This document shows positions 1 through 12,972 of a stretch of 12,972 nt of DNA, one piece after another. Origin of the DNA: Chlorobiota bacterium (lineage in GTDB: Bacteria > Bacteroidota > Ignavibacteria > Kapaibacteriales > UBA2268); the NCBI GenBank assembly GCA_039810525.1, contig JBDHXE010000056.1, positions 1 through 12,972 of the forward strand, written 5' to 3'. The notes under the pieces are model-generated. The model saw only the letters and a list, made by a program, of their open reading frames with translations, made no database searches and was not told the origin of the DNA. How positions within the stretch are numbered: the stretch's first letter is position 1; every line of letters begins with the position of its first letter. The translations under genes and the position numbers were made by a program.

Positions 1-608
1 TCTTTATTGTCTGTTGATATATCACCCCAATTGCCCGATCTTATGATATATTTATTATCATTTGATATTTTTAAGTCGTAAGCACCCTTAATCATATCTA
101 TACGATTTATCAATTCACCTGAAATTGTATTGTAAACACTTATACCAGATGTATATACACTATTACCCCTTGTTGTTGCCAATAAACTTCCATCTTTATT
201 AAAGCATACATTTGTGCTTGGTTCAAATGTATTTATTAAGGATTTATTATCAACATCATAAACAAAAACACCACCATCAACAGGACTTGCTATTGCAATA
301 AAATTATTGATGCAATCTATATCCAAAATCTTATATCCTGTTTGCGGATATTCATAAACTAATTCACCCGTCTCTGCATCCCATAATCTTGGAACTCCGT
401 CATCACCACCAGAGGCAAGATACCTACCATCTGGTGTAAACTTCACTGCATTGATTGCATTGGGATAGGTAAATTTTGTCCATACGGTATCGGGTAGCTC
501 GTTTGTCTGTCCCCTACCCGTTTGCGTATTACAAATAAGCACTACTACAAGTGCGGCAAGAGTGAAGAGCACGCTGACTCTTCTGTTGTTTTGTTGGTTT
601 TTCAACAT
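1..608 (-). CDS. Partial secreted beta-propeller (WD40-like) protein. The N-terminal ~202 aa are in the window and the C-terminus runs off the left edge. It has a signal peptide that may be a lipoprotein signal.
   Basis: Hand translation of the reverse complement from the ATG at 606-608 to position 1 finds no stop. The N-terminus MLKNQQNNRRVSVLFTLAALVVVLICNTQ is positively charged then hydrophobic, with a Cys. Motifs such as LASGGDDGVPRLWDAETGE and GSLLATTRGNSVY resemble WD40 or beta-propeller blades. AGGAG lies 9 nt upstream of the ATG. Confidence 0.6.
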   Translation of the reverse strand, partial: MLKNQQNNRRVSVLFTLAALVVVLICNTQTGRGQTNELPDTVWTKFTYPNAINAVKFTPDGRYLASGGDDGVPRLWDAETGELVYEYPQTGYKILDIDCINNFIAIASPVDGGVFVYDVDNKSLINTFEPSTNVCFNKDGSLLATTRGNSVYTSGISVYNTISGELINRIDMIKGAYDLKISNDNKYIIRSGNWGDISTDNK

Positions 609-984: not shown

Positions 985-2271
985 TTATATCGATACCCTT
1001 CTCCATAGTTCAGAGCTAAATTTTGGGTCAATATACCCAGAATACTTTTCTAAATTTGGATAAAATTTTGTGAAGTTTTTTGCACTCATACGGGCATCTT
1101 TGGCTGGATAGACTCTACCCCCGGCATCTGCTACTATTTTATCACATATTTCTAATAAATCAAGAAGATTCTTCCCTATCATTTTAAAGTCAATAGCTAA
1201 TGTAATACCTTCCATTGGAAAGGACATTAGTCCGGGCGATGGAATATTACCAAAAGTCTTTAATACTGTCAAAAATGATGAATATCCCGATTTTGCAATT
1301 AATTTAAATATTTGATTCAAATTGTATAGCGAATTTTGCAATGGTATCACGAATTGATATTGTAGGAATCCTCTTTTGCCATATACCCTATTCCAGTTTA
1401 TAATCCCATCTAATGGATAGAAGAATGATTCAAAATGAGTAAATTGTTTTATATTTCTATGAAATTGTTTATTAAAATATAGATAATTGAAGGTTTTAAC
1501 AGTAAAAGGGTTAATAAAATCAAATTCGATAGGAAAATTCATTGCTTTTTTATCATTTGGTATATATTTTATCTGATGTTTTAGATCTGCAAAATTTCCT
1601 CTTGAATATATACCATAACCTAATTTATTGGTACTTACCCAAGAAACAGTGTAATCATAATCAAGTGATTGCTCATTAATTTCAAAGAACTCTTCAAAAG
1701 AAAAGAATTTAATAAATTCGGCATCAATTATTGGTCCCAGTGATTTGATAAGTTGTATTTCAGCATTTAATATTATACCAGTAAGCCCCAAACCTCCTAT
1801 TGTTGCAATAAATAAATCATTATTTTGAGTATTAGAACAGTGATAAATAATACCATCGCTCCTAAGAAGATCGAAAGATTTGATGTATTTACCAAAAGTT
1901 CCGTATTTATGGTGATTTTTACCGTGTACATCATTAGCAATAGCCCCACCTAATGTAATTAACTTAGTACCAGGTGTAACGGGTAAGAAGTAGCCTCGTG
2001 GTAGGAATGTATCAATAATTTCTTTGAGTGTTACTCCTGATTGAGCTTTTAATATACCACTATTATCATCGAATGCAATAAATTTATTTAAATTTGAGCA
2101 ATCTACCAATATATTATTAGAATTTAGGCAAGAATCTCCATAACTTTTTCCCAATCCATAAGGTAATATCTTTTTATGAATACTTGTAAAATCGAAATTA
2201 TAGTTATTTAATATTCTGATTTCTTGGTTATTTGGTATAGGATATTTTCCAAATGAATTATATTTTTTCAT
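985..2271 (-). CDS. FAD-dependent oxidoreductase of the DprE1 family (decaprenylphosphoryl-beta-D-ribose 2'-oxidase-like).
   Basis: 428 aa. Motifs [51 protein letters not shown] and [13 protein letters not shown] line up closely with mycobacterial DprE1 motifs [48 protein letters not shown] and GGRLYTAKDSR, recalled from memory. The start ATG overlaps the stop of the upstream gene (ATGA). Confidence 0.8.
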   Translation of the reverse strand: [428 protein letters not shown]

Positions 2272-3680
2272 ATTATACCTATTAGCATTATTATACCTAT
2301 CAATAATATGCTTAAATAACTATATTTATCCTTAATACTGAATACTATTGGGTCTTCATTCATCATAGATCTATCTGCCAAAACCCAAACTCTCATATTC
2401 CAATGTAAGAGAATTGGAATAATTAAATATAATATTTTAGGGTTAGAGTATAATTGAGAAATTGTATTGCTATTGATATATAGCACCATTACCAAAACAG
2501 ATATCATACTTGAGCATATACCCATTATTTGAACTATATTCATATCATCAGCTATATATGCTCTCCCAGAAAGTTTTTCATTTTTAGAATTTTTAAGTTC
2601 TGTAAATCTTTTCAGAGCGCCCATAGAAAAGAAAAAGAATAAGGCAAATGCCGCCAACCATTCAGAAATAATAAACCCGCTCGTAGCCGATCCAGCAATT
2701 ATTCTCATCGTATATAATAATGCAAGTGTAATTATATCAACTATATAAATTCTTTTAAGATATATTGAATATAAATATGTAGTAATAAGATATATAAGTA
2801 ATACAATTATAAAGGAAATATTGATGAAGACGCCAATCATAATGCCAATTGTCATCAATAGAATAGTATAAACAAAGGCATCGCTTATTCTGAAATTACC
2901 AGCAGCTAAGGGTCTATTCTTTTTAATTTTATGTTTTCTGTCGCTATTCAAATCCATTAAATCATTGAATATATATATAGATGAAGCCACAAAACTAAAA
3001 GATAAGAATGAAAGTAATAATTGAAAATAAATATTAAATTCAAGGCTATGAGCCAAAAGAGCAGGGAGGAATATTAGCAGATTTTTGACCCATTGGTATA
3101 TTCTAAGCTGTTTGAAAATAATTTTATACTTAGGAGTGTTTGTTCTGCCCCACGTCTCAGCTATATTAGTAATTTCTTTAGCTTTATTTATTAATATTGT
3201 GTTGTCGCTTACGATTAAAGCATTTTGTGCAAAGCTCCAAACTACCAAATCTTTATGACTATCTCCTATATAGTCGTAATTTTTGTCGCCAAATCTACCT
3301 TTTAAATATTCTGCTTTATATTTTGCTGAAAGATTGATTCCATCTTTTGAACCTATTGCTTCATCCAAAAAATTGAATTTTTCTTTATATTTGTCCGCAT
3401 AGTATTGCAAAGAAGCGGTTACTAATAGTATTGTTCTTCCTGACTTTTTTTCATTTATTAGAAAGTTTACAATTTCATCATTTAGAGGCATTGTATCAAT
3501 ATCTATTTGCACTCTATTAAACAATTGTTCTTTGAGGTATAATTTCCCTTTTATGAACCAAATTGGTATCATTAGTAAATAAATTGGATTTGATTTTATC
3601 AAAATGGCCATCGACTCGAACATCATATCCGATTTAATTAAAGTTCCGTCTAAATCTACGCATAGTGGTATATTGGTCAT
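2268..3680 (-). CDS. Bifunctional fusion. The N-terminal domain is a HAD-superfamily phosphatase. The C-terminal domain is a UbiA-family polyprenyl-phosphate phosphoribosyltransferase (decaprenyl-phosphate 5-phosphoribosyltransferase, Rv3806c-like).
   Basis: 470 aa. N-terminal HAD motifs are DLDGTL (motif I), LLVTAS (motif II) and K...GDSHKD (motifs III/IV). The C-terminal ~290 aa are multi-TM and carry the Asp-rich UbiA motif NDLMDLNSDRKH (compare Rv3806c NDVADVEADRAH). It is coupled by TAATG with glf upstream and ATGA with the DprE1-like gene downstream. Confidence 0.8.
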   Translation of the reverse strand: MTNIPLCVDLDGTLIKSDMMFESMAILIKSNPIYLLMIPIWFIKGKLYLKEQLFNRVQIDIDTMPLNDEIVNFLINEKKSGRTILLVTASLQYYADKYKEKFNFLDEAIGSKDGINLSAKYKAEYLKGRFGDKNYDYIGDSHKDLVVWSFAQNALIVSDNTILINKAKEITNIAETWGRTNTPKYKIIFKQLRIYQWVKNLLIFLPALLAHSLEFNIYFQLLLSFLSFSFVASSIYIFNDLMDLNSDRKHKIKKNRPLAAGNFRISDAFVYTILLMTIGIMIGVFINISFIIVLLIYLITTYLYSIYLKRIYIVDIITLALLYTMRIIAGSATSGFIISEWLAAFALFFFFSMGALKRFTELKNSKNEKLSGRAYIADDMNIVQIMGICSSMISVLVMVLYINSNTISQLYSNPKILYLIIPILLHWNMRVWVLADRSMMNEDPIVFSIKDKYSYLSILLIGIIMLIGII

Positions 3681-4807
3681 TATCTTATTTTAGCTATTCG
3701 TTTTTCAAATACTTGTAGAGCTATACCTACTATTTGATCCATATTATAATATTTATATTCTGCTAAACGCCCACAGAATATTACAGAATCACCTAATTGT
3801 TCAGCTTCTTGTTTGTATTTATTATACAATTCATTATTTTCTGCTTTTGGTATAGGATAGTAAGGTTCATTAATATTTTTAATGAATTTCTGAGGATATT
3901 CAAATGCTATTGAAGTCTTTCGGTGTTGCTGTTGGCTCAAATATTTAAATTCTGTAATTCTTGTATAGTCATAATTGTTAGGATAATTTAATTGCCCTAC
4001 CTCTTGATAATATTCTGTATCGATTGTTTCGAAAGCAAAACTTAAACTTCTATAAGGTAGCTCTCCATAGATATAATTAAAATATTCATCTATTGGACCT
4101 GTGAATATTAATTTATCAAAGTTTACCCCATCTTTAACATCATTATATTCTGCATTAAGCAATAAATGAATATTCTTATGATTTAAAATATTATTAAACA
4201 TAGCTGTGTAGCCATTTGTAGGTAGTCCTTGATATGTATCTTGAAAATAGCGGTCATCTTTACTAATATATACTGGTACTCTTGAAGATACAGAACTATC
4301 TAATTCTTCTGGTTTTACTCCCCACTGTTTAATATTATATCCATTGAATACATTCTTATAAATATAATTAGCAAGGAAATTGAGATCATCGTCTTTAACT
4401 TCTAACATTTTTAGAATCGGAATTTTTAATCCAAAGCCATAATTTTCAATCAATTTTTTTTCTAACTTATTTGCATATTTTGTAGAGAACAATTGCGGTA
4501 TACTATTAAGATTGAAAGGTATAGGTACATTTTTCCCTTCTATTACGGCTTTAACTTTATGGATATATGTATTCCAATTTGTAAATTGCGATAGATAATC
4601 CCATACTTTTTTTGAATAAGTATGTAGAATATGAGGTCCAAATTTATGGACTAATATGCCATCATCATTATAATAATCATACGCATTGCCAGCTATATGA
4701 TTCCTTCTATCCACTATGAGACATTTTTTGTCCAATTGTGTAGCTATTCTTTCTGCTAAAACAGCACCAGCATAACCTGCGCCAATTATTAAATAATCAT
4801 ATTTCAT
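3680..4807 (-). CDS. glf: UDP-galactopyranose mutase (UDP-Galp to UDP-Galf).
   Basis: 375 aa. The N-terminus MKYDYLIIGAGYAGAVLAERIA...RNHIAGNAY is a Rossmann FAD-binding fold. Matching regions include ...HKFGPHILHT, YFQDTYQGLPTNGYT, TGPIDEYFNYIYGELPYRSL and the C-terminal FCGRLAEYKYYNMDQ. The E. coli and Klebsiella Glf equivalents are GGRLAEYKYYDMHQ and YRSLKFE. Confidence 0.93.
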   Translation of the reverse strand: MKYDYLIIGAGYAGAVLAERIATQLDKKCLIVDRRNHIAGNAYDYYNDDGILVHKFGPHILHTYSKKVWDYLSQFTNWNTYIHKVKAVIEGKNVPIPFNLNSIPQLFSTKYANKLEKKLIENYGFGLKIPILKMLEVKDDDLNFLANYIYKNVFNGYNIKQWGVKPEELDSSVSSRVPVYISKDDRYFQDTYQGLPTNGYTAMFNNILNHKNIHLLLNAEYNDVKDGVNFDKLIFTGPIDEYFNYIYGELPYRSLSFAFETIDTEYYQEVGQLNYPNNYDYTRITEFKYLSQQQHRKTSIAFEYPQKFIKNINEPYYPIPKAENNELYNKYKQEAEQLGDSVIFCGRLAEYKYYNMDQIVGIALQVFEKRIAKIR

Positions 4808-6216
4808 TTTCTTATTATTGTTTTAATTTCATTTATATCTATAATTTTAAAAGCAAGTGATATACCAAAATATATTATAGAACTAAAAATAATACTAAAT
4901 ATTGGGTTGATAGTATCTTTAAGGAAATAAAATGGTATAAATGATATTATAGTAATTGGTATAAATTTTAGTATTTCCAATAAATAGATTCTACTATGAG
5001 TATTTCTAAAAATATACATCATACTAATAAGTACACCAAACTCGCATAATATAGTGGCAAATGCAGAACCATACATTCCATATTTTGGTATCAAAATTAT
5101 ATTAAGTATAGCATTAATAATTAATCCTATAATATTAGCTTTTACTACTTTTTTCTCTTCTTTCCAAGAAATTAATGGAGTAAAATATATTGAAATCATA
5201 TATTGAATTAAAACAGTAAAAGCTAAATATTGTAATATTATATTAGAATTAGTATATTTATCTCCTAATAAATCGACAGCTAAATCTGCTAAGAAAAATA
5301 AATATCCAAAGGCTAAATATCCTACAAGTAATTGAAGTTTAGCAAATTTTGAAATTAATCTATCTCTATCTTCAAACGTTTTGCGTTGTGATATTTGAGG
5401 GAAAAATGCACCTTGTAATATTATTGATGGTAAAATTGCGAAGTAAATTACTTGATGTGCGGCACCATAGATACCTGTTTCAAAATCACCTCTCATTAAT
5501 CCTAATAATGTAATATCAATATTATTATATAGTGTGGATATTAGGAATATTAAGCCAATTGAGAAAGCTTCTTTAGAAATATTAATCCATAGTTTGAAAT
5601 CAAAATTAAATGAGAATTTATTATATCTACGGAAGTAATATATGTACATTACAATTGAATTAATTAGCATAGACAAGCTAATGATAATGACAGCTGTTGT
5701 CAAATCTTCACTACTTTTCACCAATAAGATAATACCAATAAAATTAAGTAGGTATATTCCAATCGTTCTAAAAGCTATTACTTCCATTTTCTCAATTGCT
5801 TGAAAAAACCAATTTAACATAATAGCATTGCTAAATAATGTAATACTATATATATATATAATGTGTTGATTATATGCTAATTCTGGTTTGTTTATAATCA
5901 GTATTTGCACTACAATGAATAGCAAAATAAAGGATATTAATGATATCGTGATTCTTATACTTGTTATCAAATCTACGTATTTTTTAATAAGTGATTTGTC
6001 TTTAGCAATTTCTCTGATACCTACTTGGTCGTAGCCCAATGCCACTAATATTAGGAAATATTGTACTAATGATTTAGCAAAATTCAGAATACCATTGCTT
6101 TCTGGACCAATTGTTCTTATAAGATAAATAGTATACACAAAAGCAAGTCCTTTGCTTGCAATTTCAGCTAAGGATAGAGAGAATATATTCTTAATTATAT
6201 TTTTGGCCACACTCAT
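4804..6216 (-). CDS. Wzx-like polysaccharide or oligosaccharide flippase of the MOP superfamily ('polysaccharide biosynthesis protein').
   Basis: 470 aa. Highly hydrophobic with about 12-14 predicted TM segments rich in I/L/F. The N-terminus ...LSLAEIASKGLAFVYTIYLIRTIGPESNGILNFAKSL is typical of Wzx and RfbX proteins. The start lies 4 nt after the GH57 stop, and the stop overlaps the glf start. Confidence 0.75.
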   Translation of the reverse strand: MSVAKNIIKNIFSLSLAEIASKGLAFVYTIYLIRTIGPESNGILNFAKSLVQYFLILVALGYDQVGIREIAKDKSLIKKYVDLITSIRITISLISFILLFIVVQILIINKPELAYNQHIIYIYSITLFSNAIMLNWFFQAIEKMEVIAFRTIGIYLLNFIGIILLVKSSEDLTTAVIIISLSMLINSIVMYIYYFRRYNKFSFNFDFKLWINISKEAFSIGLIFLISTLYNNIDITLLGLMRGDFETGIYGAAHQVIYFAILPSIILQGAFFPQISQRKTFEDRDRLISKFAKLQLLVGYLAFGYLFFLADLAVDLLGDKYTNSNIILQYLAFTVLIQYMISIYFTPLISWKEEKKVVKANIIGLIINAILNIILIPKYGMYGSAFATILCEFGVLISMMYIFRNTHSRIYLLEILKFIPITIISFIPFYFLKDTINPIFSIIFSSIIYFGISLAFKIIDINEIKTIIRK

Positions 6217-6220
6217 TTGA

Positions 6221-7948
6221 TTAAGAATATACTTCTCGCCAATCTTTTAAATTTAATTCTGGGAAAATTGAATTTCTCTTTTCAGTATCTTCTAAATACT
6301 TTAGTTCAGACTTATTAAAAGTATTATTATTAATATAATTTTCAAAAAAATCACATAATTTATTAAAATCAGAATGATGATAAGAAAATCGCATTTCTGA
6401 GTAGTCTTTTGCTGACTGTGTATATATTAGAAATTGCCAATCTGATGACTGTAATAGCATCAATTCTCTCAATGCTTGTTTCAATATTCTAATAGCCGTA
6501 TTATCTAAATTATCATTAAAGTATTTAGTGTATAAGTTATTAAATCTAAGTTCATCATTATAGATACACTCCCAAGTCCATTTATTCTCTTCGTTGCTCC
6601 ATACAGTATGATTATTATCAACTCCCCAAGAACCTTCTGGTATAGATATTACTTCTTTGGGTTGAATCTGTATATACTGTTCTGATGCTGTTACCATATT
6701 CAAATATGGTGAATGATATAATCCTCTGATTACAGCTCTTAGGAACTCTGGTCCTTCAAACCACCAATGCCCAAACAATTCTGTATCGAATGGGGTAACA
6801 ACAGTACTAAATTTGCCTGTATGATTATTATAATAATTCGAGGTATTTTCTAAATTATGAATAAAATGATTAGCTTGTTTGTCAATTTTGTCGTAAGTCC
6901 AATCGGGATGATACAAAGTTTTGTACATCATATCTGCTTTGCTATCTGTAACTCTCCAATAACGGTGCATAGAAGGAAAATGCTTTTTATGAAAATCTAA
7001 ATAATCTGGCTCGGCAGGATAACCAATTTGTCCACTCCATACCTGCATAGAAAGATCGTGATGACGTGTAAATATAGCCGCAGTACCATATTCTACTTTT
7101 TCAGAAGATGCTACTTCGTACATACAAAGTGGGTTCTTATCAAAATTCCAATTTTCAAATTGGAAATTAGGTGAATTGATGGATATAAAATTTTCCTTAA
7201 TATTATCATTAAATTTACCGAGTGGAATCGAGCGTTTTAATAAATCTTCATCAGTTACAAAATATTGTATGCCGTTAGCAGCAAGAATCTGTTCTACTCC
7301 ACTTCTTAATCTCTTACTATGAAATGGTTCTATTGGTATATAGGTTTGCCATTCATAAGATGGACGATAAGCACATTCAGGCAACCAAATACCTTTTGGA
7401 TATCTATTAAAGTATTTTTTATAATTTTTGACTGCTGTGCTAACTTGCAGATTAATGCTTTGGTCGTATCCTAACAAAGGGAAGTATCCATGAGTAGCTC
7501 CACAAGTCATTACTTCAATAGCACCTTTGTCTTGAAGAGTCTTCAATCCATTGATAATAGATGAATTATACTTTTTTAAAAAATCTTCTTTTTTATTAGT
7601 GTACCATTCTTCCCAGAATTGAGTTAGCCAAATATGATGCGGTTCATAACCCCAATTAGTAAAGTTTCTCCTATCTTCTTGAGCACCTTTAATTTTCTCA
7701 TCACAATACTCTACAAATATTTTTTTAAAATCTTTATGCTCTAATTGTTCGCATAGAATCGGAGATATATCCAATGTAGCTTTGGGTAAAATACCTTCGC
7801 TCAGACAATCGTTAAATATATTAAGTAGCGGAATATAGCACTCAGCAACTGCTTCGCTTAACCAATCTACACCATGAGGCCATTTACCATGGTGAAGCAC
7901 CCAAGGTAGATGTGTATGCAAAATTAAGACATAATTACCGGAATGCAT
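6221..7948 (-). CDS. Glycoside hydrolase family 57 protein, 1,4-alpha-glucan branching enzyme-like (GH57 catalytic domain plus C-terminal DUF1957-type region).
   Basis: The N-terminal motifs YVLILHTHLPWVLHHGKWPHG, IWLPECAYRP (candidate catalytic Glu) and TPFDTELFGHWWFEGPEFL are signatures of GH57 branching enzymes. The ORF track begins at the TTG at 7960. An ATG at 7946-7948, preceded by GGGAG with a 6-nt spacer, is the more likely start (protein MHSGNYVLILHTHLP...). Confidence 0.82.
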   Translation of the reverse strand: MHSGNYVLILHTHLPWVLHHGKWPHGVDWLSEAVAECYIPLLNIFNDCLSEGILPKATLDISPILCEQLEHKDFKKIFVEYCDEKIKGAQEDRRNFTNWGYEPHHIWLTQFWEEWYTNKKEDFLKKYNSSIINGLKTLQDKGAIEVMTCGATHGYFPLLGYDQSINLQVSTAVKNYKKYFNRYPKGIWLPECAYRPSYEWQTYIPIEPFHSKRLRSGVEQILAANGIQYFVTDEDLLKRSIPLGKFNDNIKENFISINSPNFQFENWNFDKNPLCMYEVASSEKVEYGTAAIFTRHHDLSMQVWSGQIGYPAEPDYLDFHKKHFPSMHRYWRVTDSKADMMYKTLYHPDWTYDKIDKQANHFIHNLENTSNYYNNHTGKFSTVVTPFDTELFGHWWFEGPEFLRAVIRGLYHSPYLNMVTASEQYIQIQPKEVISIPEGSWGVDNNHTVWSNEENKWTWECIYNDELRFNNLYTKYFNDNLDNTAIRILKQALRELMLLQSSDWQFLIYTQSAKDYSEMRFSYHHSDFNKLCDFFENYINNNTFNKSELKYLEDTEKRNSIFPELNLKDWREVYS

Positions 7949-7962
7949 AATTACTCCCAAAA

Positions 7963-7989
7963 ATTATAAACAATGAATAAAAAACGCAA
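7963..7989 (-). promoter_or_regulatory. Candidate sigma70-type promoter for the GH57-wzx-glf-HAD/UbiA-dprE1-like operon.
   Basis: On the minus strand, TTGCGT, a 15-nt spacer, then TATAAT, ending about 14 nt before the ATG at 7948. It sits in the 224-bp intergenic region downstream of the flotillin terminator. The spacer is short, so this is tentative. Confidence 0.3.
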
Positions 7990-8106
7990 TTTATTCAAAA
8001 ATACTTCTTTTTCTCGCTTTTACAAATTAAGACTGGTATTAAATGAAAATAATCAATATTAGGTTTACTAAAACATTGTAAATTAACTTTGTAAAATATT
8101 TTGTCC

Positions 8107-8145
8107 TCAAAAAACACCCTCCTTATAAATTTATAATAAGAAGGG
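8107..8145 (-). terminator. Rho-independent terminator of the nfeD-flotillin operon.
   Basis: On the minus strand, CCCTTCTT, a 13-nt loop, then AAGGAGGG. That is an 8-bp GC-rich stem with one mismatch, followed directly by TGTTTTTTG. It lies 28 nt after the flotillin stop. Confidence 0.55.
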
Positions 8146-8172
8146 CAAAAATAATGTATAATCAATTTTTTA

Positions 8173-9708
8173 TTATTTCGAACTGTCATCATTAGTTTTT
8201 TTAAAATTGCTAAGTATATCTACTCCTGTTGCTTTTTCTATAACTTCGTTGAGAGATATTACTGAGTTAGGCAATTGTGATATTACTTTATTCAATGGCG
8301 AACTGTCATTATTATTACCAGAATCTATTACAGTCATTTTATCAATTTTAACATCTTTTACCACATTGGTCAATTGGCTTATTATTTCTGGGAGCATATT
8401 TAGCATAAATACTTTATCGCCATTTCCTTGTGCTGATAGATATGCATCTATTTTTTTTCTTAAAACCTCTATGTGAGCTTCTCCATCAGCAATAATAGAT
8501 GCGGCTTCTCCTTTGGCTTCTAATTCTAATGCCTCTTTTTTGGCTTTTGCTGGTTCTATAACATCAGCCATTAATTTTTGTTTTTGCAATTCTATTCTTT
8601 GTCTTTCTAACTCTTGTTCATATTTTACTTTTGCTAATTGTCCAGCTACTTCAGCTTCTTTTTCTTTAACTATGGCTTGTTTCTCCAAATCAGCTTTTGT
8701 CATTCTGTAATTATTCTTCTCTATTTCAATAGTTTTGTCAGCGTTAGCTCGTGATATTTTTATTGATTTATCAGTATCAATTTGTGCATTCTGAATATTT
8801 TGTAGAGCAATTGCTTTCGCTTTTTCTGCTGTTTCGTGTGCTTGGGCATCTGCTTCTTCGGCTGCTGCTTTTTTGGTAGCTGTTGCAATCAAAATTTGCT
8901 GTTCGGATAGAATTTTTGCTCTTTCTATTTCTTGATTAGCTATAGCTTTTGCTTTCTCAATTTCTTGGTTCGAAATTGCTTTCGCTTTTTCGATTTCTTG
9001 ATTTGCATTAGCTTTTGCTTTTTCTGCTCTTTCCAAGGCAGTGGCCTCCGCTTCTTGTGCATCAGCCATCTTCTCAGCTTCTATTTTTTTGGCTCTTGAG
9101 ATCACTTCGGCAGTTTTGCCTCTACCAATTGAATTTAAATAGTCATTATCATCAGAAATATTCGTTATTTTCAAAGTATCTAATTGTAATCCAAGTTTAT
9201 TCAAATCCAAATCTGCTTCATCCATCAAAGTTTCAGCAAATTTCAATCTATCTTCATTTACTTCTTCTGGTGTAAGCGAAGCTAATACGCCTCGAAGATT
9301 ACCTTCGAGAGTATCTTTTGCAATTGCATGAATATCGCTTGCACTACGTGTTAGGAATCTTTCTACTGCATTACCAAACGAAGGTTCGGTAGATGCAATT
9401 TTAATATTGGCTATTGCTTCTACTTTAAGAGGGATACCACCTTTAGAGTAAGCATTTATTACTTCTAATTCTATTGGTATAGTCTCGAGCGACATACGTG
9501 TAGCTTTTTCTATAAGAGGCATTTTGATAGTTCTACCACCACGTATAGTTCTATAACCAATTTCTTCGCCGTTTGCTAACTTTCTTCTTCTACCAGATAA
9601 AATAATTACTTCATTTGGGTGCGCAATTAACAGCATTTTGCTAATCAAAGTAAATATTACAATCAACGACACAGCTCCTACACCTGCGAAAAACAAAATC
9701 ATTTCCAT
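8173..9708 (-). CDS. Flotillin (SPFH or Band-7 domain membrane-microdomain scaffold protein, FloT/YuaG type).
   Basis: 511 aa. It has an N-terminal TM helix, then an SPFH-like region (HPNEVIILSGRRR..., GGIPLKVEAIANIKI). A long Glu/Ala-rich coiled coil carries EA-type repeats (ANQEIEKAKAI x3). It sits directly downstream of an NfeD-like gene, as in B. subtilis yuaF-yuaG. AGGAGAAATT precedes the ATG. Confidence 0.88.
   Translation of the reverse strand: MEMILFFAGVGAVSLIVIFTLISKMLLIAHPNEVIILSGRRRKLANGEEIGYRTIRGGRTIKMPLIEKATRMSLETIPIELEVINAYSKGGIPLKVEAIANIKIASTEPSFGNAVERFLTRSASDIHAIAKDTLEGNLRGVLASLTPEEVNEDRLKFAETLMDEADLDLNKLGLQLDTLKITNISDDNDYLNSIGRGKTAEVISRAKKIEAEKMADAQEAEATALERAEKAKANANQEIEKAKAISNQEIEKAKAIANQEIERAKILSEQQILIATATKKAAAEEADAQAHETAEKAKAIALQNIQNAQIDTDKSIKISRANADKTIEIEKNNYRMTKADLEKQAIVKEKEAEVAGQLAKVKYEQELERQRIELQKQKLMADVIEPAKAKKEALELEAKGEAASIIADGEAHIEVLRKKIDAYLSAQGNGDKVFMLNMLPEIISQLTNVVKDVKIDKMTVIDSGNNNDSSPLNKVISQLPNSVISLNEVIEKATGVDILSNFKKTNDDSSK
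8905..9040 (-). repeat. In-frame 33-bp imperfect tandem repeat (about 3 copies) inside the flotillin coiled-coil region.
   Basis: Nucleotide units gcttttgctttctcaatttcttggttcgaaatt, gctttcgctttttcgatttcttgatttgcatt and agcttttgctttttctgctctttcc encode (A)NQEIEKAKAI, SNQEIEKAKAI and ANQEIERAKIL. Confidence 0.5.
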
Positions 9709-9726
9709 AATTTCTCCTATATTAAA

Positions 9727-10344
9727 TTATAAATCGTATTTATCAACAATAGCTATATTATCATCAAATTCTATTAAAAGTATTTTGTCGCCTTTTCTTA
9801 GTTCTTCTATTTTGCTAATTGAACTTAGTTTTGCGATAATTTCTATAGTGGAGCCTGATGTTTCTATCAAAATCTTTCCTTTTCTATCTTTGCTTAAAGG
9901 TAATGTTACTATACCTTTTGAACCTATAAGCTCTGTATATTCTTTTGTTTTCCCAGATTCACTTTTTTTTAGGTAATTCATAAACGAATATCCAAAAATT
10001 GATGCAAATAGTCCTATAATTATAGAACTAAACAATTTAGTAGAATCACTAAAACTAAAAAGATCTCCCAGAGTACCACTTAATCCAAAAAACGTTATAA
10101 AATAGAGAATGTTTCTAAAACTAAAAATTTTACCAATTTCATATAACTTAGTTATATCACTGCTACCGATTGATTTTGCTGATATATCTTTATTGATTTC
10201 AATATGATGTGAAGTATCTAAATGATCTAAGTCTATATGATGAACATCTACTGTATCTACATCGTGTGCAGTACCTCCTGTAAATAATGAAAATAATACT
10301 AAAATACCGCCAAATATCAAGCAAGCTAAGTAAATAATTGACAT
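9727..10344 (-). CDS. NfeD-like membrane protein (short YuaF-type form), the partner of flotillin.
   Basis: 205 aa. Hydrophobic N-terminal TM segments are followed by a C-terminal OB-fold-like segment (GKILIETSGSTIEIIAKLSSISKIEELRKGDKILLIEFDDNIAIV). It lies 18 nt upstream of the flotillin start. Between the TM helices there is an unusual His/Asp-rich stretch, AHDVDTVDVHHIDLDHLDTSHH. Confidence 0.72.
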   Translation of the reverse strand: MSIIYLACLIFGGILVLFSLFTGGTAHDVDTVDVHHIDLDHLDTSHHIEINKDISAKSIGSSDITKLYEIGKIFSFRNILYFITFFGLSGTLGDLFSFSDSTKLFSSIIIGLFASIFGYSFMNYLKKSESGKTKEYTELIGSKGIVTLPLSKDRKGKILIETSGSTIEIIAKLSSISKIEELRKGDKILLIEFDDNIAIVDKYDL

Positions 10345-10450: not shown

Positions 10451-11449
10451 ATGTATATTGAAAATGAGCTGTTTTATCAGAAAAGGGTATTTCAATTAAT
10501 ATCTGACCCAACTAAAGTATATAACACTAAGTCTGGCAAAAGATTACAATTCTTATCGCCCGGCAAGCTAAGTTCTATAGGACCCGATTTTAAGGATATT
10601 GCATTATTAATAAATGGATATTTAATAATTGGAGATTGTGAATTCCATATCAAAAGTAGTGATTGGATAGATCATAGACATGAATTGGATAGTAAGTATA
10701 GTGATGTAATTCTTCATATTGTATTAGAAGATATTATAGATATTAAAGGAAATTTTGAGACTTTGATTATTAGTGAAGACAAGTTAGAAGCAATTAATAC
10801 TACTCAAACTATTGAGACTAACAATTTCACCGAGATTGAAGAGATACAAAACTTCGCCTTATTAAGGCTATTACGCAAAACTTCTAATGCCAAAAAGTTA
10901 TTAAATAATAATTCGATTATTGATTCACTTCAAATACTTTCGCAAGAATTTATAACGAGATACGAGCATAGGCGGCATAGGCCAAAATATACATCAAGTA
11001 AGCTAAGTGAGATTATAGATGCTATTTCTAATTCTACAATTGTTAATTATTTATATGATATTGCTAACAACGAGAACATATCTGTATCTGATATAATGCA
11101 AAGTTTGATTAAAAATAAGATTTATGATGAAGGACCACATTTACGTAGGGAATTAGTTTTGAATGCAGTGATACCTCTACTATTGGCTTTGGCAAATGAT
11201 AATAATAGGATCAATTTATTTGTATGGTATTGGTCTACTCCAGCACTGAATAATTACGGTATATTAAATAGAAAATTCCCTAACAATCCTCAAAATTTCT
11301 TATGGCAGCAGCAAGGTATGTTAGAATATATCGCAGAGTATGGCAATAGATCTAACCTAATTGCCGAATCTTTCCGTGAATATGGCTTTTTGGAAGTATT
11401 GAGTTTTTATAAAAACGGAAGATTACCTTTAGAATTCTTTGAGAATTAA
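10451..11449 (+). CDS. DUF2851-family protein of unknown function.
   Basis: 332 aa. The N-terminal region ...RLQFLSPGKLSSIGPDFKDIALLINGYLIIGDCEFHIKSSDWIDHRHELDSKYSDVILHIVLED matches the conserved DUF2851 core (G-D-hEIH-hKSSDW-xHgH-x-D-x-YnNVILHVV) as I remember it. The family is mainly in Bacteroidota and the wider FCB group. Confidence 0.75.
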   Translation: MYIENELFYQKRVFQLISDPTKVYNTKSGKRLQFLSPGKLSSIGPDFKDIALLINGYLIIGDCEFHIKSSDWIDHRHELDSKYSDVILHIVLEDIIDIKGNFETLIISEDKLEAINTTQTIETNNFTEIEEIQNFALLRLLRKTSNAKKLLNNNSIIDSLQILSQEFITRYEHRRHRPKYTSSKLSEIIDAISNSTIVNYLYDIANNENISVSDIMQSLIKNKIYDEGPHLRRELVLNAVIPLLLALANDNNRINLFVWYWSTPALNNYGILNRKFPNNPQNFLWQQQGMLEYIAEYGNRSNLIAESFREYGFLEVLSFYKNGRLPLEFFEN

Positions 11450-12426
11450 CTTATTAGTCTTGATATTTCTTCTGCTACCCTTAATGCTTCTGATGCCTCA
11501 TTAGCATTTACTGCTATTGGAGTATTATCATTAATAGCAGACACAAAGGCAAATTGTTCTTCTGCAATAGCATTAATTTTATCAACATTGGGTTTCTCAA
11601 AATATATATTTCGATTTTTGATACCAGTCTCTATAGATCCAAGCATCATAGCAGGCACACCTTCGGTTGAATGCAGCCCTTCGTCGTATATTTTATATAC
11701 TTCTACATTATGCTCTTGAAAATCTAATGATATATATGCATCTTTCTGGAATATCCTCATTTTCCTCATAGGATTAGCAGTGATACGCGATGCTGTGATA
11801 TTAGCTATAAGCCCAGTCTCAAATTTAATTCTAGCATTTGCAATATCAAAGCTATCACTAATTACAGCTACTCCACTCGCGTCTATTTTTTCAATTTTGG
11901 ACTGTGCTAACCAAAGAATAATATCTATATCATGAATCATCAAATCATGAATTACTGATACATCAGTAGCACGTGGTTTGAATTGACTGAGTCTATGTGC
12001 TTCAATAAACATTGGCTTATCAATATAGGGTCTTATTGCTTTGATTACTGGATTGAATCTTTCTACATGCCCTACTTGAATTAACACATTATTTTTTTTG
12101 GCAGATTCTATTAAGTCTAATGATTCGTTATAAGTATTGGTAATAGGCTTTTCTATCAGGCAATGTTTCCCATTCTCTATAAATTTCTTTGCTATTGCCC
12201 AATGATTGATAGTAGGAACTGCAATTGTAGCAGCATCAGAATTTTCAATTGCTTCTTCGATAGAATGATATGATTTGCAGTTATATTCATTAGCTATTTT
12301 GTCTGCTTTTGCAGTATCAATATCGTATATTCCTATTAATTCTACATTAGGATTTGATGACCATAGTTTAGTATGTATGCTACCAAGATGTCCAATTCCA
12401 ACTACTATTACCTTTAATTTTTTCAT
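11446..12426 (-). CDS. Gfo/Idh/MocA-family NAD(P)-dependent oxidoreductase.
   Basis: 326 aa. It has an N-terminal Rossmann motif KVIVVGIGHLGSIHT and the family-diagnostic EKP motif (CLIEKPIT). Its stop codon overlaps the DUF2851 stop (TTAA at 11446-11449, convergent). Confidence 0.85.
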   Translation of the reverse strand: MKKLKVIVVGIGHLGSIHTKLWSSNPNVELIGIYDIDTAKADKIANEYNCKSYHSIEEAIENSDAATIAVPTINHWAIAKKFIENGKHCLIEKPITNTYNESLDLIESAKKNNVLIQVGHVERFNPVIKAIRPYIDKPMFIEAHRLSQFKPRATDVSVIHDLMIHDIDIILWLAQSKIEKIDASGVAVISDSFDIANARIKFETGLIANITASRITANPMRKMRIFQKDAYISLDFQEHNVEVYKIYDEGLHSTEGVPAMMLGSIETGIKNRNIYFEKPNVDKINAIAEEQFAFVSAINDNTPIAVNANEASEALRVAEEISRLIS

Positions 12427-12473: not shown

Positions 12474-12972
12474 TTAAGATTTTGGATGTGCTTTTTTATA
12501 TTGTTCTTTTAATCGCTCTATAGATATATGAGTATAAATTTGTGTAGTATTGAGAGATGAATGTCCTAACATTTCGCCTACACTCCTTATATCGGCTCCA
12601 TTATCTAATAAATGAGTAGCAAAAGTATGCCTAAGAGTATGCGGACTCTTTTTGCTGACTTCAGTTTTGCCAATCATTCTGTGTTTTACAATTTTATAAG
12701 CCATTGCTGGACTAATTCTTTTAATTTTTTTATCTATAAACAAAGGGTATTCTTTTTCACTTTTAAACAGAGACATAATTATTTTTTTATATGCTATATA
12801 CTTTTCTATAAAAGTGTTTGTAATCGGTACTAATCTTTCTTTATTACCTTTACCTAATATCTTGATTAATTTCTCGTTTAAATTGATACTATTAATATTA
12901 AGCTGGAGAGCTTCACTAATTCTCAGCCCTGACCCATATAGCAGCTCTAAAAGTAAAGCATCTCTCCAATCC
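12474..12972 (-). CDS. Partial tyrosine site-specific recombinase of the XerC/XerD family. The C-terminal catalytic domain is present and the N-terminus runs off the right edge.
   Basis: The ORF track lists only the 100 aa from an internal Met. Hand translation upstream of it stays open to 12972 (...DWRDALLLELLYGSGLRISEALQLNINSINLNEKLIKILGKGNKERLVPI...). Catalytic signatures are GLRISE (Arg I), HTLRHTFATHLL (His-x-x-Arg), LGHSSLNTTQIYTH (His, Tyr) and the XerD-like tail ERLKEQYKKAHPK. Confidence 0.8.
   Translation of the reverse strand, partial: DWRDALLLELLYGSGLRISEALQLNINSINLNEKLIKILGKGNKERLVPITNTFIEKYIAYKKIIMSLFKSEKEYPLFIDKKIKRISPAMAYKIVKHRMIGKTEVSKKSPHTLRHTFATHLLDNGADIRSVGEMLGHSSLNTTQIYTHISIERLKEQYKKAHPKS

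Follow-up and report, generated by a model that had tools for sequence, protein, structure and literature searches.

A conserved five-gene unit with a predicted role in furanose sugar activation in a Kapabacteria-like bacterium

The window analysed here (the whole stretch of 12,972 nucleotides) comes from a Kapabacteria-like bacterium (Bacteroidota) and carries five adjacent genes that, judging from their sequence, are most likely co-transcribed and translationally coupled as one unit. The best explanation for the unit as a whole, which we hold with a little more belief than doubt, is that it provides an envelope glycan with activated furanose sugars. The products would most likely be UDP-galactofuranose (UDP-Galf) and a polyprenyl-phospho-pentofuranose for an uncharacterised glycan, the pentofuranose being probably arabinofuranose (Araf) made with the help of an unlinked reductase.

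Results

The unit and its surroundings comprise the following features, all on the minus strand.

1-608, minus: gene for a WD40/beta-propeller protein with a signal peptide, the next gene past the unit, with its own AGGAG
609-984, minus: AT-rich spacer of 376 nt, 3' of the dprE1-like stop at the end of the unit
985-2271, minus: DprE1-like FAD-dependent oxidase (NF053785), last gene of the unit
2268-3680, minus: HAD phosphatase::UbiA fusion (NF006088/PRK08238)
3680-4807, minus: UDP-galactopyranose mutase, Glf (TIGR00031, PF03275)
4804-6216, minus: Wzx-like flippase of the MOP superfamily (PF01943)
6221-7948 (from ATG; the ORF extends to a TTG at 7960), minus: GH57 branching-enzyme-like protein, first gene of the unit
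7949-8172, minus: upstream spacer from the flotillin stop to the GH57 start, the presumed promoter and ribosome-binding region

The initial annotation had placed a five-gene operon at 985-7989. The operon itself was confirmed, as five minus-strand genes at 985-7960 are joined by overlaps apart from one 4-nt gap, but the GH57 gene more likely starts at ATG 7948 than at TTG 7960 and position 7989 therefore falls inside the upstream spacer. ORFs of at least 80 aa are absent from this spacer, and one 65-aa minus-strand ORF (7995-8192) lies mostly within it. At the GH57/Wzx junction the stop TAA is followed by TCAA and then by the Wzx ATG, which makes the 4-nt gap; the Wzx/Glf and HAD::UbiA/DprE1-like junctions are ATGA overlaps and the Glf/HAD::UbiA junction is TAATG. 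GH57 alone among the five genes has a Shine-Dalgarno-like sequence (GGGAG, 7-11 nt 5' of ATG 7948), and its lack at all four internal starts fits translational coupling.

A host other than an actinomycete had been suspected, and this was confirmed by the GC content of 30%, the T9SS Por_Secre_tail in the neighbours and the closest genome, Candidatus Kapaibacterium sp. (phylum Bacteroidota). The reported DUF2851 gene was also located, at 10451-11449 on the plus strand. The unit is set among housekeeping genes, outside any O-antigen or EPS cluster.

Profile searches upheld all five family assignments (GH57, Wzx, Glf, HAD::UbiA and DprE1-like), and the HAD, UbiA, DprE1-like and GH57 parts all retain their catalytic motifs. 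The HAD::UbiA protein has 470 aa, with the HAD domain at about nt 3246-3656 and the UbiA domain (PF01040, 3e-24) at about nt 2382-3071. As had been proposed, the UbiA domain lies nearest to the PRPP:polyprenyl-phosphate phosphoribosyltransferase clade (NF006088/PRK08238, 544 bits against a cutoff of 351; DPPRS models, 1e-39), and its best PDB match is Rv3806c (8j8j, 4.8e-21). All other UbiA models reached at most 8e-14, so that the quinone, haem and chlorophyll clades were rejected. With 3075 cluster representatives at E<=1e-30, this fused family is very large. The HAD motifs D9xD11, T88, K121 and GD140xxxD144 and the UbiA motifs N239-D240-xx-D243-xxx-D247 and K357-R358-xx-E361 are kept across 14 homologues, and they correspond to the residues mutated in Citrobacter youngae ORF15 (PMC11127046).

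The DprE1-like protein (428 aa; FAD_binding_4, 4e-21) is covered over its full length by the DprE1 model NF053785 at 3.5e-98, with 330 bits, below the equivalog cutoff of 500; the next FAD-oxidase family follows at 2.6e-14, in line with the original identification. Mycobacterial DprE1 structures match it at 1e-68, and a lactone or alditol oxidase was ruled out by these profile and structure matches. HGKNHH and the AKD lysine are kept and the benzothiazinone-target Cys is Ala.

Glf (375 aa) scored 426 bits with TIGR00031 (cutoff 303.75) and contains PF03275 (1e-74) and NAD_binding_8; a literature search on Ignavibacteria and UDP-galactopyranose mutase found nothing. The Wzx-like protein (470 aa) has at least 10 hydrophobic segments by hydropathy, a Polysacc_synt domain (PF01943, 6e-38) and a weak match to the teichoic-acid subunit flippase 9xzn. 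GH57, with 575 aa from ATG 7948, contains PF03065 (1e-37) and BE_C (3e-21), matches the Thermococcus TK1436 branching enzyme (3n8t) with 380 bits, and conserves the catalytic Glu (WLPECAY) and Asp (FDTELFGHWW). It occupies the same operon position in loci L002, L085, L089, L092 and L093 and is a variable member: L153 lacks it and L091 has a GT-C in its place. Most simply, GH57 would be an ordinary co-transcribed alpha-glucan branching enzyme with no demonstrated part in the furanose chemistry. A glycogen phosphorylase gene was seen about 3 kb from the unit in L002.

Three other genomes carry the five genes in the same order, with 57-84% amino-acid identity (L002, L085/86 and, partially, L096), and we therefore regard this as a conserved unit and not a chance arrangement. 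In the window's clade (clade A, four genomes), the unit is kept although the upstream and downstream flanks differ. Among sister lineages, the order is GH57-Wzx-Glf-HAD::UbiA-DprE1-SDR in L092 and L093, Wzx-Glf-HAD::UbiA-DprE1-SDR in L153, and GT-C-Wzx-Glf-UbiA-DprE1-SDR in L091, a sister Kapaibacterium. These gene orders indicate that an operon [GT-C or GH57]-Wzx-Glf-HAD::UbiA-DprE1-DprE2 is common to Ignavibacteria and Kapabacteria, and this context is the new part; the window's clade retains its first five genes, with no DprE2-like reductase in the sequence that the searches reached. HAD::UbiA-DprE1-SDR occurs with no adjacent Wzx in L087, L095 and L089/90; it stands alone in the first two and a transposase parts the dprE1/SDR pair in the last.

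Such clustering might be inherited synteny with no shared function, where GH57 would serve glycogen, Glf and Wzx would serve LPS or EPS, and HAD::UbiA and the DprE1-like enzyme an unrelated lipid-linked sugar. The variability of GH57, the glycogen phosphorylase near the L002 unit and the solitary HAD::UbiA-DprE1-SDR of L087 and L095 speak for this. However, the start/stop overlaps persist across these divergent genomes, and the Wzx-Glf-HAD::UbiA-DprE1 block is kept through at least three different flank contexts, so we think it quite improbable.

The unit does not encode the complete donor pathway. A search for a DprE2-like SDR found none in the window and none in the flanks of about 9-20 kb of L002, L082, L085/86 and L096, and tblastn gave no trace of one anywhere in the window, including the spacer 609-984, even at E<=10. 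In nearly all other loci, a DprE2-like gene lies directly 3' of dprE1. The SDR of the sister lineages is DprE2-like (PRK07102, 299 bits; NF053786, 2e-48), and nearly all SDR-anchored metagenome loci with enough upstream sequence have the DprE1-like gene immediately upstream (exceptions L105, L116 and L141).

It is conceivable, though we consider it improbable, that the clade truly has no DprE2 and that the end product is not Araf: it could be a 2-keto-pentofuranose, the product of a non-homologous reductase or aminotransferase, or ribofuranose, with the DprE1-like enzyme acting on another substrate. The blank tblastn search and the rarity of unlinked SDRs favour such a loss, as do the operon's end at dprE1 in four independent clade-A assemblies, each with a different downstream flank, and L094, a second lineage with no adjacent SDR. 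On the other hand, the DprE1-like protein shows high conservation: no more than two fixed, clade-specific substitutions distinguish it from the SDR-linked orthologues, and neither falls in a known catalytic motif. DprE2-like SDRs that stand alone occur in related T9SS-bearing genomes of low GC (L116 and L105) and, together with the L089/90 transposase, make unlinking simpler than loss. The clade genomes were moreover inspected as fragments only. We prefer an unlinked reductase. Against it stands that none of the best 120 DprE2-like proteins lies on a contig matching any clade-A contig in length, but this is weak evidence, as the list was cut short.

A GT-C glycosyltransferase is absent from the window, as noted before, but the expectation of one nearby was not borne out within about 9 kb past the window on one side and about 1 kb on the other in this genome. 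The sister lineage L091 places one at the head of the corresponding operon. Its product (525 aa; predicted fold with pLDDT 89.6) has AftA, STT3, AftB, DPY19, PglB and ArnT as best structural matches; an invariant DDxYIH follows its first transmembrane helix. No gene for a GT-C, a priming phosphoglycosyltransferase, Wzy, a Galf-transferase or a GtrA-type flippase was found in the window or flanks, and the acceptor, the glycan and the final sugar are thus all inferred.

From its family, the Wzx-like protein plausibly belongs to an Und-PP repeat-unit route. A less favoured but real possibility is that it flips the polyprenyl-monophosphate-pentofuranose donor, a task that falls to GtrA or small SMR/EamA transporters in described systems; in that case the operon of these FCB-group bacteria would amount to a three-component system complete in itself (synthase, flippase and GT-C), with Glf in addition. 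The gene order in L091 suits this, and no priming transferase, Wzy or Leloir glycosyltransferase lies beside Wzx in any locus examined. A GtrA-like gene is likewise found in none of the Ignavibacteria or Kapabacteria loci by tblastn with a GtrA query alone, whereas GtrA follows the epimerase genes in gammaproteobacterial loci and a 122-aa EamA transporter directly follows HAD::UbiA in a Vibrio plasmid locus. To our knowledge, however, all PF01943/MOP flippases characterised so far translocate oligosaccharides that are linked to a diphosphate. Wzx also lies directly upstream of glf, always overlapping it, in every locus that has Wzx, and L087, L095 and L089/90 keep HAD::UbiA-DprE1-SDR without it, implying that the donor pathway works without an adjacent Wzx. 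The missing GtrA is weak evidence because Pseudomonas can do without GtrA-type proteins (bioRxiv 10.1101/2020.04.19.049825).

Discussion

We suggest the following pathway, of which the HAD, DprE1-like and Glf steps are sequence-supported. The N-terminal HAD domain of HAD::UbiA would take off the 5-phosphate to give polyprenyl-P-beta-D-ribofuranose, a reaction shown for C. youngae ORF15; the DprE1-like flavoenzyme would oxidise C2 to a 2-keto intermediate; and Glf would provide UDP-galactofuranose. A DprE2-type SDR encoded elsewhere may reduce the keto sugar to polyprenyl-P-D-arabinofuranose. The Wzx-type flippase may export a polyprenyl-diphosphate-linked, Galf-containing glycan, to which an unlinked GT-C of the family at the L091 operon head could add the pentofuranose outside the cytoplasmic membrane.

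Mycobacteria and corynebacteria make decaprenyl-phospho-arabinose and arabinogalactan with Rv3806c (UbiA), Rv3807c, DprE1 (Rv3790), DprE2 (Rv3791), Glf (Rv3809c) and AftA/AftB/Emb, and mycobacterial galactan is exported by an ABC transporter. The window resembles this pathway in its UbiA domain, closest to Rv3806c, in the FAD oxidase, which aligns with DprE1 structures from end to end and has the catalytic His/Lys motifs, and in glf neighbouring ubiA; AftA and AftB are the nearest structural neighbours of the predicted L091 GT-C. It differs in having a fused HAD phosphatase in place of the separate and structurally unrelated Rv3807c, Ala for the benzothiazinone-target Cys, presumably undecaprenyl phosphate as lipid carrier, no linked DprE2, a Wzx-type flippase instead of the ABC transporter, and a Gram-negative FCB-group host.

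The location outside the Actinobacteria had been offered as a novelty, but Azorhizobium noeC/H/O, Pseudomonas PA7 and C. youngae ORF15 are already documented. In Azorhizobium caulinodans, noeC-noeH-noeO serve Nod-factor D-arabinosylation, and their homology to mycobacterial arabinose-precursor enzymes has been recognised since 1996-2005 (PMC2443382). They share with the window such homologues in a non-actinobacterium; unlike it, they lie inside the nod operon with no glf, Wzx or GH57, and their acceptor is a lipo-chitooligosaccharide. Pseudomonas aeruginosa PA7/Pa5196 glycosylates pilin with D-Araf through PsPA7_6245-6251 and TfpW/TfpX (bioRxiv 10.1101/2020.04.19.049825). Like the one proposed for the window, this polyprenyl-P-Araf pathway belongs to a Gram-negative host, and it uses homologues of UbiA, DprE1 and DprE2; unlike the window, its cluster encodes DprE2, a GtrA-like protein and a phosphatase that is a separate protein, and it has no glf or Wzx. 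Its GT-C TfpW sits in a separate, unlinked cluster, a precedent for the GT-C missing here (same preprint).

The fused architecture is shared with C. youngae ORF15, a HAD-phosphatase::UbiA that makes polyprenyl-P-ribofuranose and whose architecture was described as widespread (PMC11127046). Both proteins join an N-terminal HAD phosphoribose-phosphatase to a C-terminal UbiA-type polyprenyl-phosphate phosphoribosyltransferase, and the residues shown to matter in ORF15 are all conserved in the window protein. ORF15 belongs to the three-component extracytoplasmic pentofuranose glycosylation systems, such as ORF15-ORF14-ORF12 of C. youngae O1/O2, with or without the ORF13 epimerase or DprE1/E2, the latter being associated with Araf-containing glycans (Kelly et al. 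2024, PMC11127046). The DprE1 homologue of the window would correspond to the auxiliary epimerase component and the L091 GT-C to the glycosyltransferase. In contrast to those systems, the window and its flanks have no GT-C, DprE1 occurs without DprE2, and a 470-aa Wzx/MOP protein stands where a small 4-TM (EmrE/ArnE-like) or GtrA transporter would be expected. The unit also includes glf and GH57, and it lies in a housekeeping setting in Bacteroidota instead of an O-antigen or EPS cluster.

Organization of the operon

Five long ORFs on the minus strand occupy positions 985-7960 of the window, which is AT-rich (about 30% GC overall and 25-33% throughout).

Genes of the operon, first to last (position, strand, product)
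6221-7948, minus, GH57 protein
4804-6216, minus, Wzx-like protein
3680-4807, minus, Glf
2268-3680, minus, HAD::UbiA (fused phosphatase-synthase)
985-2271, minus, DprE1-like protein

The initial annotation had described these genes as joined by start/stop overlaps or a 4-nt gap, and the junction sequences were exactly so. The GH57 stop codon is followed by TCAA and the ATG of the Wzx-like gene (the 4-nt gap), the Wzx/Glf and HAD::UbiA/DprE1-like junctions are both ATGA overlaps, and Glf and HAD::UbiA share one base in TAATG. Among the five genes, the first alone is preceded by a Shine-Dalgarno-like motif (GGGAG, 7-11 nt 5' of the ATG at 7948). The absence of such a motif before the starts of the four internal genes fits with coupled translation. 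The flotillin and WD40 genes of the window, which are independently transcribed, also carry GGAG or AGGAG. Because of the upstream GGGAG, and because the same start was called on a Logan contig, the ATG at 7948 (575 aa) is a more plausible start for GH57 than the TTG at 7960 taken from a mechanical ORF listing.

A spacer of 376 nt follows the DprE1-like gene and leads to the WD40 gene (1-608, minus strand). A scan of the sequence for the sigma-70 consensus gave 59 matches against 58.6 expected and therefore carried no information on the promoter. A few terminator-like hairpins were found, none of them a convincing operon end, and the Rfam, tRNA and tandem-repeat scans returned nothing bearing on the operon.

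Other genes in the window (position, strand, product)
1-608, minus, N-terminal part of a WD40/beta-propeller protein with a signal peptide, truncated by the window end
8173-10344, minus, 511-aa flotillin (SPFH/Band_7) and NfeD/YqiJ-like membrane protein of 205 aa, between DUF2851 and GH57
10451-11449, plus, DUF2851 protein, with a Pfam match on the first ~100 residues only
11446-12426, minus, GFO/IDH/MocA oxidoreductase resembling archaeal UDP-GlcNAc 3-dehydrogenase (184 bits, below cutoff)
12474-12972, minus, XerC/XerD-like tyrosine recombinase, C-terminal part only, truncated by the window end (its length on contig L001 is 298 aa)

The flotillin gene contains a 33-bp tandem repeat of 3.4 copies (8914-9024), which encodes peptide repeats of the NQEIEKAKAIA type. 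In the closest genome, Candidatus Kapaibacterium sp. (L002), no gene separates DUF2851 from GH57, which makes the flotillin/NfeD pair an insertion/deletion difference. The convergent GFO/IDH/MocA and DUF2851 genes are kept as a pair in L002 and not in the related locus L085.

Identity of the encoded enzymes

Profile searches bore out the identities proposed for all five proteins. HAD::UbiA matched NCBIfam NF006088/PRK08238 over residues 2-469 of 470 (544 bits, cutoff 351; 3e-163). The runner-up models were those of decaprenyl-phosphate phosphoribosyltransferase (DPPRS, 1e-39), and the closest solved structure was Rv3806c (8j8j). A quinone, haem or archaeal-lipid prenyltransferase was ruled out because the NCBIfam models of these and other UbiA subfamilies reached at most 8e-14. 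The UbiA domain is thus placed in the DPPR-synthase clade, as had been suggested, and not among the quinone or chlorophyll enzymes. Its loop II motif NDxxDxxxD is represented by N239, D240, D243 and D247, and its loop IV by R358 and E361; all except D243 are invariant in 14 aligned homologues. Mutagenesis of the counterparts in ORF15, the fused enzyme of Citrobacter youngae (N247/D248/D251/D255 and R366/E369), showed that these residues matter (PMC11127046). The Pfam HAD match was slightly under the gathering score (24.3 bits against 27), and the HAD motifs are present, namely motif I with the equivalent of the ORF15 nucleophile D18 (CVD9LD11GT) and motifs II-IV (VT88AS, K121 and GD140SHKD144). 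The fused family is large, with 3075 representatives of 50%-identity clusters at E<=1e-30, and it occurs on 101 plasmids.

The DprE1-like protein matched the DprE1 model NF053785 almost from end to end (positions 38-447 of 449, 3.5e-98). Since the next flavoenzyme family followed at 2.6e-14, a sugar-lactone, alditol or glycolate oxidase was ruled out, and the assignment to DprE1 rather than to another VAO/PCMH subfamily held. In the PDB, mycobacterial DprE1 entries were matched at 1e-68 and cytokinin oxidase at 6e-08. We call the protein DprE1-like because its score of 329.7 bits is under the NCBI equivalog cutoff of 500. Conservation with M. smegmatis DprE1 (4aut) extends to the His/Lys motif of the active site, HGKNHH, and to the catalytic Lys in the C-terminal AKD; both are invariant among 15 orthologues. 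The Cys targeted covalently by benzothiazinones is replaced by Ala; to our knowledge, this Cys is dispensable for catalysis in DprE1.

Glf scored 426 bits against TIGR00031 (cutoff 303.75) and has both the NAD_binding_8 (FAD-binding N-terminus) and GLF domains. The Wzx-like protein matched Polysacc_synt (PF01943, 6e-38) and has at least 10 hydrophobic segments.

The GH57 protein has the PF03065 and PF09210 (BE_C) domains, gave 380 bits to the Thermococcus branching enzyme TK1436, and aligns with it at the catalytic Glu (WLPECAY) and Asp (FDTELFGHWW). From its sequence, it would seem to be a normal alpha-glucan branching enzyme; the branching specificity should be read as probable, since the score was below the NCBIfam equivalog cutoffs (433 against 1000). 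L002 has a glycogen phosphorylase gene (15508-17991) roughly 3 kb past the operon on its downstream side, which is consistent with a role of GH57 in alpha-glucan metabolism. Because GH57 is present in some of the loci and missing from others, we regard it as co-transcribed and not demonstrably part of the furanose chemistry.

The locus in Ignavibacteria and Kapabacteria

The initial annotation had judged an actinomycete very unlikely, and this was confirmed. A 36.9-kb Logan contig carrying the exact proteins has neighbours with the T9SS Por_Secre_tail domain, and the closest genome, L002, belongs to Bacteroidota. We compared the genomic neighbourhoods of the DprE1-like orthologues and of a putative GT-C glycosyltransferase, together with a metagenome scan. 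The comparison shows that Ignavibacteria and Kapabacteria have a conserved furanose locus.

Gene order in related loci (locus, order)
L092 and L093, TPR-DUF3467-GH57-Wzx-Glf-HAD::UbiA-DprE1-SDR
L153, DUF3467-Wzx-Glf-HAD::UbiA-DprE1-SDR
L089/90, GH57-Glf-HAD::UbiA-DprE1-(Y1 transposase)-SDR
L091, TPR-DUF3467-[525-aa membrane protein]-Wzx-Glf-UbiA-DprE1-SDR
L087/88 and L095, HAD::UbiA-DprE1-SDR only
L094, HAD::UbiA-DprE1 only
L178, TPR-DUF3467-[GT-C homologue]-GH57, furanose genes absent

The SDR of these loci is DprE2-like (PRK07102, 299 bits; NF053786, 2e-48). The gammaproteobacterial order is HAD::UbiA-DprE1-SDR-epimerase-amine oxidase-GtrA. A horizontally acquired island was considered and was unsupported, as synteny of the block extends over the class and the GC content stays at 25-33% across the window.

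The 525-aa protein heading the L091 operon had no Pfam match, and the profile of its family matched none of the PDB sequences. Its fold was recognized through structure prediction (pLDDT 89.6) and Foldseek only, with AftA, STT3, AftB, DPY19, PglB and ArnT as the best matches; by this predicted fold, the protein is a GT-C. The first helix is followed by a DDxYIH motif that is invariant in the family, and some homologues match PF13231. Homologues also lie near UbiA genes in L040 (Acidobacteriota, with a DprE1-like gene as well) and L021 (Ignavibacteria). Members of ~530 aa, both devoid of Pfam matches, follow TPR-DUF3467 in L091 (4203-5780), where the gene replaces GH57 at the operon head, and in L178 (8519-10105), where it directly precedes GH57. 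The GT-C/GH57/DUF3467 neighbourhood recurs across loci.

No linked DprE2 or GT-C in the clade of the window

The window, L002, L085/86 and L096 form a clade in which the DprE1-like proteins share at least 69% mutual identity. Their common order is GH57-Wzx-Glf-HAD::UbiA-DprE1-like (the L096 contig begins inside HAD::UbiA), and all of these operons stop at the DprE1-like gene, with a different downstream flank in each. In tblastn searches at E<=10, neither the window nor the flanks of the clade yielded a DprE2-like SDR, and no dprE2 remnant was seen 3' of the DprE1-like gene. No tblastn trace of GtrA or GT-C was obtained in the loci of the clade; GT-C was absent from the window and from L002, L082, L085 and L096. 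The window has no ORF for a small 4-TM (EmrE/ArnE-like) or GtrA-type flippase. The DprE1-like proteins of the clade carry only two clade-specific fixed substitutions, neither in a catalytic motif.

The unlinked state is unusual, because wherever an SDR-anchored metagenome locus reaches far enough upstream to judge, the DprE1-like gene nearly always stands immediately before the SDR (exceptions L105, L116 and L141). Stand-alone DprE2-like SDR genes were seen on two low-GC contigs of related, T9SS-bearing genomes, L116 (3416-4153) and L105 (3100-3846), with 71% and 67% identity to the SDR of the Ignavibacteria operon and no dprE1 within 3 kb upstream. That of L116 lies between the gene of a T9SS-secreted Ig-repeat protein and gyrB-recF-dnaN. 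Two indirect checks were made: in the DprE2-profile scan of metagenome contigs, 0 of 80 loci came from the metagenome of L096, and none of the best 120 DprE2-like proteins lay on a contig equal in length to one of the clade. A route to unlinking is illustrated by L089/L090, of an Ignavibacteria lineage, in which a Y1-type transposase gene (11345-11935) has come to lie between dprE1-like and dprE2-like.

Proposed pathway

Judging from homology and motif conservation, the UbiA domain would combine PRPP with polyprenyl-P to give polyprenyl-P-ribose-5-P, the HAD domain would dephosphorylate this product, and the DprE1-like protein would oxidize it at C2, while Glf would convert UDP-Galp to UDP-Galf. 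An unlinked DprE2 may then reduce the keto sugar to Araf, and an unlinked GT-C may use the resulting donor. Wzx perhaps exports a Galf-containing acceptor.

The role of Wzx can be read in two ways. Transport of a diphosphate-linked glycan is favoured by the precedent of the family, by the invariable overlap of wzx with glf, and by the lack of Wzx in loci that retain the donor genes. The PF01943 flippase is the only member of a Wzx/Wzy pathway in the window and 20 kb of contig, where a priming phosphoglycosyltransferase, Wzy and Leloir glycosyltransferases are absent. This lack of priming and polymerizing genes favours Wzx as the flippase of the lipid-linked pentofuranose donor, as do the GT-C-Wzx-...-DprE2 arrangement of L091 and the absence of a GtrA-like gene from these loci (in a screen for the GtrA type only).

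A more far-reaching reading joins several of these elements. It holds that Ignavibacteria and Kapabacteria vertically inherited an arabinogalactan-like furanose pathway, with Galf and a pentofuranose derived from PRPP, with a GT-C resembling AftA/AftB, and with Wzx as perhaps the long-sought translocase of the lipid-linked pentofuranose donor, that DprE2 was truly lost in the clade of the window, and that the glycan there contains a 2-keto or otherwise modified pentofuranose instead of arabinose. We consider this combination as a whole unlikely.

Should the proposed pathway prove right, Ignavibacteria and Kapabacteria, an entire Gram-negative lineage, would build an envelope glycan from the two furanose donors by which mycobacterial arabinogalactan is defined, using the fused synthase-phosphatase already validated in Enterobacteria. 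We know of no settled flippase for lipid-linked pentofuranose donors in mycobacteria or Pseudomonas, and the sister operon GT-C-Wzx-Glf-PPPRS-DprE1-DprE2 (PPPRS being the polyprenyl-P phosphoribosyltransferase role of the fused enzyme) is a compact, testable gene set that could show which protein flips them. The clade without DprE2 raises the question of whether DprE1 works with an unlinked or a different reductase. In practical terms, the guide that Kelly et al. (2024) give for bioinformatic searches would come to cover loci with an unclustered flippase, GT-C and epimerase.

Comparison with known systems

The pathway had been presented as new outside the Actinobacteria, and this claim fails because of three precedents. 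The noeC/H/O genes of Azorhizobium are homologues that were used in finding the mycobacterial genes (PMC2443382). In Pseudomonas PA7/Pa5196, the pilin is arabinosylated via PsPA7_6245-6251 and an unlinked GT-C, TfpW (bioRxiv 10.1101/2020.04.19.049825). In C. youngae, ORF15 joins an N-terminal HAD phosphoribose-phosphatase to a UbiA-type synthase and converts PRPP to polyprenyl-P-ribofuranose (Kelly et al., PMC11127046). A literature search pairing Ignavibacteria with UDP-galactopyranose mutase yielded no paper. The possibility, raised earlier, that the gene set is already a well-characterized locus applies only in part.

Three-component systems, which consist of the synthase, a small transporter and a GT-C, plus ORF13 or the DprE1/E2 epimerases, are widespread (PMC11127046). 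A locus on a plasmid of Vibrio alfacsensis (L177, NZ_CP140104.1, 8980-10769) looks like an unreported example; its HAD::UbiA homologue (39% identity) lies within an XrtA/PEP-CTERM exopolysaccharide locus, and the genes directly after it encode an EamA-family transporter of 122 aa and hypothetical membrane proteins.

In the three-component systems, the synthase is accompanied by a small 4-TM/GtrA flippase, whereas the window has a Wzx/MOP protein instead. They also have a GT-C with the synthase, which is lacking at the window but occurs in the sister operon L091. The system is not of a new kind; it represents a further variant, and a further lineage, among the lipid-linked pentofuranose pathways that depend on PRPP, distinguished by the Wzx-Glf linkage, by its setting among Bacteroidota housekeeping genes, and by a clade without linked DprE2 and GT-C.
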